From a virus: DNA of 12,303 bases. The position numbers were made by a program, and so were the translations under genes. The stretch lies in the UHGV virus genome UHGV-0113946; one strand, given 5' to 3'. Positions within the stretch are counted from its first letter, which is position 1, and each line of letters begins with the position of its first letter. This document shows, in pieces, positions 3,154 to 6,590 of this stretch. Below the pieces are notes generated by a model that was given only the letters and a program-made list of their open reading frames with translations, had not been told where the DNA came from and ran no database searches.

Positions 3154-3687
3154 ATGAACACCAAAATCAAATACGGCCTGTCGGCTGCCGTTCTGGCGCT
3201 GATTGCCGCTGGTGCGCCTGCGCCTGACATTCTCGACCAGTTTCTGGATGAAAAAGAAGGTAACCACACCACGGCATACCGTGATGGTGCGGGTATCTGG
3301 ACCATCTGCCGTGGAGCCACCCGGGTGGATGGTAAGCCTGTTATTCCTGGCATGAAGCTGTCGAAGGGGAAATGCGACCGGGTTAACGCCATTGAGCGTG
3401 ATAAGGCGCTGGCATGGGTGGAGAAAAACATCAAAGTGCCACTGACTGAACCCCAGAAAGCGGGAATTGCGTCATTCTGTCCTTACAACATTGGCCCCGG
3501 TAAGTGTTTCCCGTCGACGTTTTATAAACGAATTAATGCAGGCGATCGCAGGGGAGCGTGTGAGGCGATTCGCTGGTGGATTAAGGACGGTGGCAGAGAC
3601 TGCCGTATTCGCTCAAATAATTGCTATGGTCAGATATCCCGTCGTGACCAGGAGAGCGCGCTGGCGTGCTGGGGAATCGACAGATAA
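3154..3687 (+). CDS. R: SAR (signal-anchor-release) endolysin, lysozyme family
   Basis: N-terminal Gly/Ala-rich weakly hydrophobic segment (GLSAAVLALIAAGAPA) typical of SAR domains, followed by a T4-lysozyme-like catalytic E...D...T arrangement (DEKEGNHTTAYRDGAGIWT); position after the pinholin. Confidence 0.85.
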   Translation: MNTKIKYGLSAAVLALIAAGAPAPDILDQFLDEKEGNHTTAYRDGAGIWTICRGATRVDGKPVIPGMKLSKGKCDRVNAIERDKALAWVEKNIKVPLTEPQKAGIASFCPYNIGPGKCFPSTFYKRINAGDRRGACEAIRWWIKDGGRDCRIRSNNCYGQISRRDQESALACWGIDR

Positions 3688-4040: not shown

Positions 4041-4172
4041 ATGTCAGACAAACTCATAACGCTGGCGAAGATCCTCTGTGTAATTGTCGGCATTTCATTT
4101 TCACTAATGCTGGTTGCTCTTTTTCTTTCCATGGCCTGGATGATGTTGTCTTCGTCGGGGCTGCTGGGGTGA
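4041..4172 (+). CDS. Hypothetical small membrane protein (43 aa)
   Basis: ATG at 4041 with GGGAGG Shine-Dalgarno 7 nt upstream; almost entirely one transmembrane segment ([26 protein letters not shown]); its stop overlaps the Rz start region. Confidence 0.45.
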
Positions 4173-4669
4173 ACATAAACCGAATGCTTTCCGCGTTTAT
4201 CGTTATTCTGCTGGTGGCCTGTGGAGCGCTGTGGATGGCAACAGACCATTACCGTGATAACGCGATTACCTACAAAGCGCAGCGCGATAACAAAGCCAGT
4301 GAACTGAAGCTGGCGAACGCAACTATTACTGATATGCAGGTGCGCCAGCGCGATGTTGCTGCGCTCGATGCAAAATACTCGAGGGAATTAGCCGATGCGA
4401 GAGCTGAAAATGAAACTCTTCGCGCTGACGTTGCCGCTGGTCGTAAGCGCCTGCGGATCAACGCCACCTGTCCAGGCTCCGTGCGTGAAGCCCCCACCAC
4501 CTCCGGCGTGGATAATGCAACCGGCCCCCGACTGGCAGACACCGCTGAACGGGATTATTTCATACTCAGAGAACGGTTGATGACAATGCAGAAGCAGCTG
4601 GAAGGGGCGCAGGAATATATCCGCACTCAGTGCACTAAGCTGGCTTTTTATTATCCGGAGGATACATGA
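4169..4669 (+). CDS. Rz: Rz inner-membrane spanin (i-spanin), lambda-like
   Basis: N-terminal transmembrane segment then [14 protein letters not shown]...[10 protein letters not shown]...VAAGRKRL...[10 protein letters not shown]...[13 protein letters not shown], closely matching lambda Rz as recalled. Start is either GTG 4169 or ATG 4184 (ambiguous). Confidence 0.85.
4395..4580 (+). CDS. Rz1: Rz1 outer-membrane lipoprotein spanin (o-spanin), embedded out of frame within Rz
   Basis: [20 protein letters not shown] lipoprotein signal with lipobox Cys, then proline-rich [26 protein letters not shown], closely matching lambda Rz1 as recalled; entirely inside the Rz reading frame in a different frame. 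Confidence 0.8.
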
Positions 4670-4890: not shown

Positions 4891-5228
4891 GCGACCTTAT
4901 TATCCATGCGCGGTATTGTCGCCGTATTCCTGCATTAACAGAGACCGCAGCCCGACAGGGAGACTCCTCTGCGCGAGTGTGCGGGGATAATCAAAAACGA
5001 TACACACCGGGGTTTACCGCGTTAACGGAGCGCGGCGTTGTCCCCTCATGGTCGCTGGTCCGGTGCGATGGTGGAAGAAACCGGACGATGTGTTACCTCG
5101 CATGACCTGTTATGTCATGTGTCTGATTTGTGATTTAAGTCGGATAATTGTCGTTGCCATTAAGCAGAGGATTGATGGCCGACAGGGTGGCATTGTTAGA
5201 ATAAGACTTATTCTTATCTGTGCCGGGA

Positions 5229-5561
5229 ATGAAAATGAAAAGAAATCTTCCGTTAATTATTTTGTTGTCTTCTCTGGTTATGGGCTGTACGCAACATAAA
5301 ACAGATATGCCCCGACAGTTGGTTAAGGCATTACCACAATATCCGGCCTATGCAGCGGCAAATTATATAAAGGGACGGGTTGATGTGAAGTTTGATATTG
5401 GTGCTGATGGTACTGTCACCCGAATTGAGTTTATCCGTTCAGAGCCGCACCATCTGTTTGATGAGCAGGTTGTAAAGGCGATGGCAAAATGGCGATTTGA
5501 GAAGGACAGGCCGCGTAAAGGCGTGAAGAAATCGTTTATCTTTAGTCCTTCTGCACCCTGA
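5229..5561 (+). CDS. Lipoprotein consisting of a TonB C-terminal domain (TonB_C-like), probable moron
   Basis: Signal peptide MKMKRNLPLIILLSSLVMG followed by Cys (lipobox-like LVMGC; residue +2 is Thr, not Asp). The mature region LPQYPAYAAANYIKGRVDVKFDIGADGTVTRIEFIRSEPHHLFDEQVVKAMAKWRFEKDRP aligns by eye with the E. coli TonB C-terminal domain as recalled ([61 protein letters not shown]). AT-rich relative to the flanks. Alternative starts at GTG 5220 or ATG 5235. Confidence 0.8.
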   Translation: MKMKRNLPLIILLSSLVMGCTQHKTDMPRQLVKALPQYPAYAAANYIKGRVDVKFDIGADGTVTRIEFIRSEPHHLFDEQVVKAMAKWRFEKDRPRKGVKKSFIFSPSAP

Positions 5562-5934: not shown

Positions 5935-6300
5935 ATGGCTGAGCTTCGTACACTCCAGAGCAGAATCAAAACACTGAATACCCGACGGGTGAATATTCTG
6001 AAGGGGGAACAGCGTCGTGTCAGTGGCAGTGCACGTGTTTCCCTCAAGCGTCATATCTGGCTCAGGGATGCCGGGCAGTGCTGTCTCTGTGGTCGTGTGG
6101 TTGACCTCTGTGACAGTGAACTCGATCACCGAATTGCACTTCAGTTCGGTGGTGGTAATGAGGAGACGAATCTCTGGACGCTCTGTACCGAATGCCATCG
6201 ACAAAAGTCTGCTCGTGAAGCGGCGGGTGGTATGCCGGACCCGACGCTGCCGGAGGTGTCCGGAGGTAGTGGCAGAGCGGACGACATCATCGGACTGTAA
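5935..6300 (+). CDS. HNH endonuclease (packaging-associated, HK97 gp74-like)
   Basis: HNH motif CCLCGRVVD...DHRIALQFGGGNEETNLWTLCTECHRQKS with two Cys pairs and the His-Asn-His arrangement; sits immediately upstream of the terminase genes, as in HK97-type packaging modules. Confidence 0.85.
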   Translation: MAELRTLQSRIKTLNTRRVNILKGEQRRVSGSARVSLKRHIWLRDAGQCCLCGRVVDLCDSELDHRIALQFGGGNEETNLWTLCTECHRQKSAREAAGGMPDPTLPEVSGGSGRADDIIGL

Positions 6301-6391
6301 CCCGACCCGGGGGGGTATCATCCGGCGTAAAAAACGATCGCTCCGGACACCGCGCCCCCTCTCACGCAGAGAAAAAATTCCCGTTTCAGGG

Positions 6392-6518
6392 CAGTTAACA
6401 TGTTAACTGGCTGCCCGGGCATTTTTGCGGTTTTTATCTTTATAATTCAGTTTGTTGTGCGGAAAAAATGTTAACTGGCTTTTTCAGCAAATGTTAACCA
6501 GGCAGCAGTTAACATTTG
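6392..6518. promoter_or_regulatory. Candidate cos-proximal terminase recognition region: repeated palindromic GTTAAC-containing motifs separated by an AT-rich segment
   Basis: Perfect 18-bp palindrome cagttaacatgttaactg (6392-6409); motif aatgttaactgg again at 6467-6478; inverted pair caaatgttaac (6488-6498) and gttaacatttg (6508-6518); A-tract and T-tract rich DNA at 6421-6470. Lies between the HNH and small-terminase genes. Confidence 0.45.
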
Positions 6519-6590
6519 CGGCATGAGACGCCGGGGAAAAATGGGCTGAACCATACCCGGCTGAGTGCGTTCTGGACCCGGGAGGAGGCT

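Follow-up and report, generated by a model that had tools for sequence, protein, structure and literature searches.

A probable cos region with conserved GTTAAC sites between the HNH and small-terminase genes of a BP-4795-like lambdoid prophage

Cleavage at the cos site of phage HK97 leaves a 10-nt 3' overhang and is assisted by the HNH protein gp74. In phage lambda, cosB has the arrangement R3-I1-R2-R1, in which binding sites for gpNu1 are combined with a bend made by IHF, and in the general model for phages SPP1 and SF6 the protein G1P recognises repeated pac boxes on bent DNA. A cos site with repeats bound by the small terminase (TerS) is a well-known kind of element. In HK97 the minimal TerS site has been placed at +15 to +29 from the cut, a stretch which includes an A/T-tract (PMC11331095). 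For the locus considered here, the closest described system is that of the Stx1-converting phage Lys8385Vzw (MT225100; Zhang et al. 2021), which was sequenced from particles (PMC7946995). Analysis with PhageTerm indicated cos packaging with 3' cohesive ends, CGCCCCCCCT; the paper gives this overhang only, and describes neither repeats nor a G-run nor a terminase-binding site (PMC7946995). The overhang is therefore already published for one member of the family. Our searches of the literature returned nothing relevant on GTTAAC in connection with terminase and cos, and in the searchable literature we found nothing on repeats or a terminase-binding site in the BP-4795-like phage family.

The DNA analysed here is a 12.3-kb stretch of a viral genome (UHGV-0113946), hereafter the window. 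Gene calls identify its content as the late region of a lambdoid prophage, in which a gap of about 290 bp separates the gene for an HNH endonuclease from that for TerS (Table 1). The gap is 94-98% identical to the corresponding DNA of 94 deposited phages, among them BP-4795 (genus Marienburgvirus), 2851, YYZ-2008 and 1717, and including many Stx1a, Stx2a and Stx2c phages. We found the cos region in 1278 of 5426 complete E. coli genomes (about a quarter), at up to seven copies per genome; no annotated feature at this region is listed under the ten best-matching RefSeq chromosomes. The HNH protein is 70% identical to that of Salmonella phage FSL SP-016, which is encoded at the same position. Among solved structures in the PDB, the large terminase (TerL) matches only the TerL of HK97 (6z6d, E = 9.9e-10), and by this measure it is HK97-type. 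The terL gene is followed directly, without an intervening portal gene, by a gene for a 645-aa protein in which an S78 prohead protease is fused to an HK97-fold capsid protein. Amid the late and lysis genes are also found a 440-aa SASA/DUF6645 protein, resembling sialate O-acetylesterases (7-1329), and a 113-aa protein with a TonB C-terminal domain (5220-5561).

Table 1. Genes and cos-region elements of the window; plus-signed distances are counted from the cut, with +1 at position 6361
Feature	Position	Strand	Remarks
Lysozyme gene	3154-3687		
Rz gene	4169-4669		
HNH endonuclease gene	5935-6300	+	Pfam HNH, E = 7.5e-7; right-most gene of the virion chromosome
G-run, CCCGGGGGGG	6306-6315	+	G7 at 6309-6315; conserved element of cos, some 45 bp upstream of the cut
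Cohesive-end sequence, CGCGCCCCCT	6351-6360	+	Predicted 10-nt 3' overhang; virion left end at 6361
Conserved block +1 to +25, CTCACGCAGAGAAAAAATTCCCGTT	6361-6385	+	A6 tract at 6372-6377
18-bp palindrome, CAGTTAACATGTTAACTG	6392-6409	.	Two ATGTTAACTG sites, A and B
Site A	6392-6401	-	Hexamer at 6394-6399, +34 to +39
Site B	6400-6409	+	Hexamer at 6402-6407, +42 to +47
Spacer	6410-6467	+	T-tracts at 6422, 6431, 6439 and 6451; candidate intrinsic bend
Site C, ATGTTAACTG	6468-6477	+	ATGTTAACTGG copy at 6468-6478
Inverted pair, GCAAATGTTAAC / GTTAACATTTGC	6487-6498, 6508-6519	.	12-nt arms, 100% complementary; 9-nt spacer
Site D, ATGTTAACCA	6491-6500	+	Left member of the inverted pair
Site E, ATGTTAACTG	6506-6515	-	Right member of the inverted pair
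Shine-Dalgarno sequence, GGGAGGAGG	6580-6588	+	Contains GGAGG; read from the sequence
Small terminase gene, terS	6591-7154	+	187 aa, GTG start
Large terminase gene, terL	7151-8875	+	Pfam TerL_ATPase and TerL_nuclease
Protease-capsid fusion gene	8872-10809		Follows terL

The position of the cut was taken from Lys8385Vzw, the cos of which is essentially the same element. In alignment, its record is 99.1% identical to window 6361-6900; the first base of the record (CTCACGCAG) corresponds to 6361, and its last bases (...ACCGCCCCCCCT / ...GGACACCGCCCCCCCT) align to the window up to 6360. Because the record starts at 6361 and ends at 6360, we assign the overhang of the window to the ten bases listed in Table 1. 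This overhang differs from the published one by a single substitution, the G at 6354, a variant common to 41 of the 60 distinct close relatives. In that sample the cohesive end is polymorphic at two positions, with G in 41 and C in 19 at 6354, and C in 46 and G in 14 at 6359. The earlier note on this DNA, made from the window by itself, had proposed that the gap is a cos region, and the coincidence of the mapped ends of a 99%-identical phage with 6360/6361, together with the HK97-type TerL, bears this out: we regard it as very likely that cos lies in the gap between HNH and terS. The arrangement which that note had described, with the HNH gene adjoining cos on the side away from the terminase genes, is likewise what we see, as the HNH gene lies directly upstream of the gap. 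The cut falls inside the interval that it flagged but outside the repeats, 31 bp to the left of the 18-bp palindrome and about 30 bp to the left of the GTTAAC repeats. As to headful (pac) packaging, which the note had set against its own proposal, the near relative Lys8385Vzw has fixed cohesive ends. The record ends of other deposited phages are uninformative, as Stx-phage records are prophage-ordered and the record of vB_EcoS_phi330 starts at about the start of terL.

The elements that flank the cut resemble those of HK97, in which the genes follow the same order (HNH, cos, terS, terL) and TerL is homologous. A G9 run precedes the right end of HK97 by about 45 bp, and in the window G7 precedes the cut by 45 bp. 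To the right of the cut, HK97 carries a T7 tract at +24 to +30 and starts terS at +50; the window has its A6 tract at +12 to +17, and relatives with the ancestral form of the region start terS 40-50 bp past the cut, as HK97 does. The G-run is nearly invariant in 18 relatives from many genera, and its length varies among close relatives (6306-6309). The block at +1 to +25 is the most conserved non-coding stretch across relatives. In seven relatives (L008, L012, L013, L015-L017 and L022), the DNA that separates HNH from the G-run has AT-rich arrays of AATGAT / ATCATT (tgaaatcatttcaaatg), 50-100 bp ahead of the latter, and such an array is also present at 39620-39660 of the HK97 record; the window has none. 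The likeness to HK97 does not extend to TerS or to the HNH protein, neither of which has significant sequence similarity to its HK97 counterpart; the window TerS is unrelated to gp1, the TerS that goes with the A-tract site in HK97, and HK97 has no GTTAAC array, whereas the window combines such an array with an SF6-like helix-turn-helix TerS and a terS-proximal region extending to 230 bp.

GTTAAC occurs seven times in the window against 1.5 expected from shuffles, and a count of seven is reached in none of 200 shuffles. Five of the seven copies are found within 120 bp (6394-6513), leaving only two elsewhere in the 12.3 kb. The longer form ATGTTAACTG occurs exactly four times, always in the repeat region, and a fifth copy there reads ATGTTAACCA (6491-6500). 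The perfect 18-bp palindrome, the additional ATGTTAACTGG copy and the inverted pair with a 9-bp spacer that had been noticed earlier are all present, the arms of the pair being 12 nt long. So are the A- and T-tracts (A6 at 6329, 6372 and 6463; T5 at 6422, 6431 and 6480). Relative to the cut, the repeats are on the side of terS, as are the cosB of lambda and the TerS site of HK97. As in lambda cosB, they are short oriented repeats, some of them inverted, between the nick and terS at the end that is packaged first, and a candidate bend parts the proximal from the distal sites. In the window this bend would be intrinsic; the four T-tracts of the spacer are roughly in helical phase, and a Fourier peak at 10-11 bp is seen in 6410-6470 (P about 0.002-0.008, from mononucleotide shuffles, which flatter the result). 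An IHF site between the repeats was considered and rejected, as 6301-6600 has no match to the IHF consensus WATCAANNNNTTR with one mismatch or fewer. In other respects lambda differs, with a 12-nt 5' overhang, a winged-helix TerS (Nu1), a lambda-type TerL and no HNH protein, against a Terminase_2 TerS, an HK97-type TerL and a 3' overhang here.

An annotated start of terS at 6516 had been read as an ATG inside one of the repeats; the position is indeed inside the right arm of the inverted pair, but the codon is TTG, and the nearest ATG (6523) is out of frame. The earlier argument for a true start at GTG 6591 is borne out by four results. TerS homologues begin at the residue equivalent to GTG 6591 (MLT...); a Shine-Dalgarno sequence precedes this codon; BP-4795 and PPompW are annotated with a 187-aa TerS; and an indel breaks the upstream frame. 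The window reads GGGG at 6531-6534, where 58 of 60 distinct relatives read GGG. As these 58 lack one G at 6533, TTG 6516 is out of frame in them, and the long extension of the reading frame to TTG 6516 thus results from the extra G of the window.

The first 56 residues of TerS match Pfam Terminase_2 (PF03592; E = 1.7e-8, 35.6 bits against a cut-off of 26.1) over profile positions 1-56, a helix-turn-helix domain of the SF6/SPP1 G1P DNA-binding family, and the protein as a whole matches phrog_641 (E = 2e-68). A sequence search of the PDB gave only weak matches (2cmp, 4zc3 and 3zqp; E = 0.2-0.8). The TerS N-terminal domain is thus of a kind shared with the G1P proteins of SPP1 and SF6, which act at pacL and pacR; these phages package by the headful (pac) mechanism, unlike the family of the window, which, going by Lys8385Vzw, has fixed cohesive ends.

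To compare the window with related cos regions, as the earlier note had advised, we used the 60 distinct sequences of close relatives and two samples of more distant ones: 20 loci from species-representative genomes, in which TerS is 37-57% identical, and 120 IMG/VR loci that share the cos core. Among the close relatives, all five GTTAAC hexamers and the whole of the 18-bp palindrome are invariant, as is the core ATGTTAAC of site C, where T and A both occur at 6476; 17 positions vary among the other 153 nt of 6392-6590. Among the more distant ones, GT(A/T)AAC..GTTAAC is present at +34 to +47 in 128 loci from about 15 genera, with hosts including Salmonella, Atlantibacter, Kluyvera, Phytobacter, Kosakonia, Enterobacter, Citrobacter, Serratia, Rouxiella, Erwinia, Pantoea and Buttiauxella. 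The hexamer pair thus holds a fixed register from the cut. The layout shared by these genera consists of the G-run, about 35 bp, GGACACCGCGCCCCCT, CTCACGCACAGAAAAAATTCCCCTCTGGAGGGTGTAAAC and then ATG TTA ACA GCG... In the 128 loci, terS starts about 40 nt past the cut, such that the GTTAAC at +42 to +47 forms part of codons 1-3 (ATG TTA ACx), the other hexamer, GT(A/T)AAC, lies at +34 to +39, and the combined GT(A/T)AAC-ATG-TTAAC spans the start codon.

Where terS starts at about +40, its second codon, for leucine, is TTA in all 74 distinct sequences; Leu40, by comparison, is encoded by four different CTN codons. As proof of constraint at the DNA level we have downgraded this invariance; the sample was selected with an exact 21-nt pattern, and because the synonymous positions of codons 6, 12, 13, 15, 44 and 49 are equally invariant in it, the observation is weak when taken alone. 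Within loci L104-L223, the synonymous positions of terS codons 12-15 (GCG CTG ATG TCC, about +72 to +85) are invariant in 66 of 66 sequences, and those of codons 6, 44 and 49 likewise; the invariance at codons 12-15 could be a further DNA-level signal or could reflect the limited divergence of the sample.

More informative are the lineages in which the start of terS has moved downstream. All of these use CTN for Leu2, and all keep GTTAAC at the old position. In the window, terS starts at +231 with CTG as its second codon, and free-standing GTTAAC hexamers are found at +34 and +42; the corresponding values are +65, CTA and a single hexamer at +36 in a Proteus locus (L020), +76, CTG and hexamers at +35 and +48 in a Pantoea locus (L021), and +75, CTT and hexamers at +35 and +47 in two further loci (L126 and L178). 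In L021 and L126 the hexamers are direct repeats, 12-13 bp apart, that form no hairpin. Decay of the old Shine-Dalgarno sequence in the window has gone along with a change of the first hexamer to a perfect GTTAAC. This supports a constraint on GTTAAC that would act on the DNA and not on its coding content. The ATG at 6400, a relic of the ancestral terS start, opens a 24-codon hydrophobic reading frame (MLTGCPGIFAVFIFIIQFVVRKKC, 6400-6474) with its end in site C; given its decayed Shine-Dalgarno sequence, this frame probably goes unexpressed.

The hexamers also change when TerS does. Three loci (L155, L191 and L198) keep the cos core but have a different TerS N-terminal domain, and in these GTTAAC is replaced by GATTAATC and ATCAAA motifs. 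L155 and L198, the two examined for this, also keep the HNH and TerL genes, and the TerS of L155 retains its C-terminal domain (phrog_641 positions 66-156). In this group, considered from +1 to +510, TerS has 132 aa and, by a family search on L155, has its C-terminal domain alone in common with the family of the window TerS; its N-terminus is Arg/Gly-rich and AT-hook-like (MPRGGPRPGAGRPKGS). On the basis of this one lineage, the comparison supports covariation of the motif with the DNA-binding domain of TerS.

Use of the signals in cis is suggested by a 16-kb PICI-like contig (L221, IMGVR_UViG_2558860275_000004; locus 700-960 on the minus strand, genes 1861-14413). The same cos core stands at the end of this contig, and after it come three TTAACATGTTAAC units and an AT-rich spacer; neither terS nor HNH adjoins the core. 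The genes of the contig encode an integrase, an anti-repressor-like protein, a primase, a PAAR-domain cargo protein and a 216-aa protein with a Nu1-like N-terminus; the last was tried as a homologue of the window TerS and rejected, and its resemblance to Nu1 is confined to the N-terminus. In carrying a cos core with three palindromes, the contig resembles the cos satellites (SaPIbov5, with its HNH-type helpers, and the PICIs of Gram-negative bacteria), and we consider it a candidate satellite of this phage family. The window, unlike all of these, belongs to a phage.

Taken together, the fixed register of the hexamers, their persistence where the start of terS has been displaced, their invariance, their covariation with the TerS domain and their presence in L221 point to GTTAAC as a DNA signal that acts in cis and is linked to the helix-turn-helix domain of TerS; in function it would be the equivalent of lambda cosB. 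The position of the ends comes from near-identity to a mapped phage, and the gene families, conservation and covariation are patterns of sequence; from these we infer the binding of TerS, the bending, and the roles of the G-run and A-tracts. We think it fairly probable that the gap holds all of cos in a BP-4795-like (Marienburgvirus-type) lambdoid prophage, one that packages its DNA by means of an HK97-type TerL, an accessory HNH nuclease and a Terminase_2-type TerS bound to the GTTAAC sites; for the binding itself, we judge the chances to be somewhat better than even. Under this reading, staggered cuts at 6350/6351 and 6360/6361 would leave the 10-nt 3' overhang, flanked by the G-run (6309-6315) and the A-tract block (6361-6385), a core shared with the cos of HK97-like phages, for which TerL and HNH are the presumed readers. 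On the left end, which is packaged first, the ATGTTAAC sites (+32 to +155) would be recognised by the N-terminal helix-turn-helix of TerS. The proximal hexamer pair (6394-6407) would be the ancestral site, which in most relatives overlaps the terS start codon. An E. coli-lineage-specific extension of about 180 bp (6410-6590) would then have moved the start to GTG 6591 and added the phased T-tract bend and three more sites, letting the DNA wrap on a TerS oligomer and so placing TerL and HNH on the cut. Because most relatives have the proximal pair only, sites C to E may be dispensable.

A rather unlikely alternative is that TerS binds the A-tract block as in HK97, and that GTTAAC serves otherwise, by binding HNH, TerL or a host nucleoid protein, or in autoregulation of the ancestral terS, the start codon of which the palindrome straddled. 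The HK97 minimal TerS site with its A/T-tract corresponds in position to the A6-bearing block of the window, and this block, the best conserved non-coding DNA of the family, persists even in the lineage where the N-terminal domain of TerS has been exchanged. That persistence can also be turned against the alternative: when the N-terminal domain of TerS changes, the block stays constant and GTTAAC does not, which fits recognition of the block by the conserved TerL and HNH, and because the G-run and the block both remain constant when TerS changes, they are more likely to be read by TerL/HNH. Moreover, the TerS of HK97 has no relation in sequence to that of the window and is without a helix-turn-helix domain of the kind found there.

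Another explanation is that sites C to E and the perfect palindrome are inert relics, without present function, of duplications of the old 5' end of terS (AAC ATG TTA ACx), dating from the origin of the extension. The motif is indeed the ancestral context of the start codon, a 37-nt direct repeat (6376-6412 and 6444-6480) that is 70% identical supports an origin by duplication, and only the proximal pair is present in most relatives. However, inert relics would be hard to reconcile with five hexamers that carry no substitution in 60 distinct sequences in which neighbouring spacer positions vary, with the retention of the region in 1278 of 5426 E. coli genomes, or with the separate multiplication of the motif in phages of the Pantoea type and in a satellite without terS at that place. 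We regard this explanation as distinctly improbable.

Two hairpins are predicted for the transcript, at 6389-6416 (-13.6 kcal/mol, z = -2.0) and 6487-6519 (-14.0 kcal/mol, z = -4.3); their arms are invariant in the 60 close relatives and so offer no covariation. Searches of 6100-6800 gave one weak promoter-like match, on the minus strand, and no intrinsic terminator. That the repeats act as RNA, with hairpins of a late transcript modulating its stability or the translation of terS and with no protein reading the DNA itself, is very unlikely. In its favour are the stability of the predicted hairpins and the location of the region, within the late operon and ahead of terS. Against it, site C stands alone and takes part in no hairpin, all arms have the same 8- to 10-nt sequence, which is more than complementarity asks for, GTTAAC forms direct, non-hairpin repeats in L021 and L126, and no terminator-like site was found.

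Returning to TerS as the protein that binds GTTAAC, the distribution of the motif can be arranged into a history, which we put forward tentatively and hold to be unlikely as a whole: the array may have arisen as a TerS module overlapping the start codon, which was later freed and multiplied in the Stx lineage and copied by L221-like satellites. If so, binding by TerS and the synthesis of TerS itself would be coupled through a site that overlaps the start codon, and the array would now define packaging specificity, with PICI-like satellites copying it for mobilisation by the very common Stx-type prophages.

The added interest of this cos region lies in its spread among pathogenic E. coli, in the overlap of its motif with the terS start codon in most relatives, and in its satellite-like carrier. 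As a cos site served by an SF6-like helix-turn-helix TerS, it also offers a case for comparison with the lambda and HK97 paradigms. Exact ends and probable docking sites help to orient and annotate these prophages, and could be of use in designing cos plasmid or transduction assays for Stx phages, in spotting the satellites that exploit them, and in judging which prophage copies in O157 and O145 strains, such as those of PPompW, remain packageable. In the PPompW prophages (L226, LC567822.1, 1146-2604), the IS110-family element ISEc20 abuts cos inside the G-run, at the equivalent of window 6312, and the lysis genes and HNH gene are missing between the Q/tRNA region and cos. Lacking these genes and part of the G-run, the PPompW copies are probably packaging-defective.
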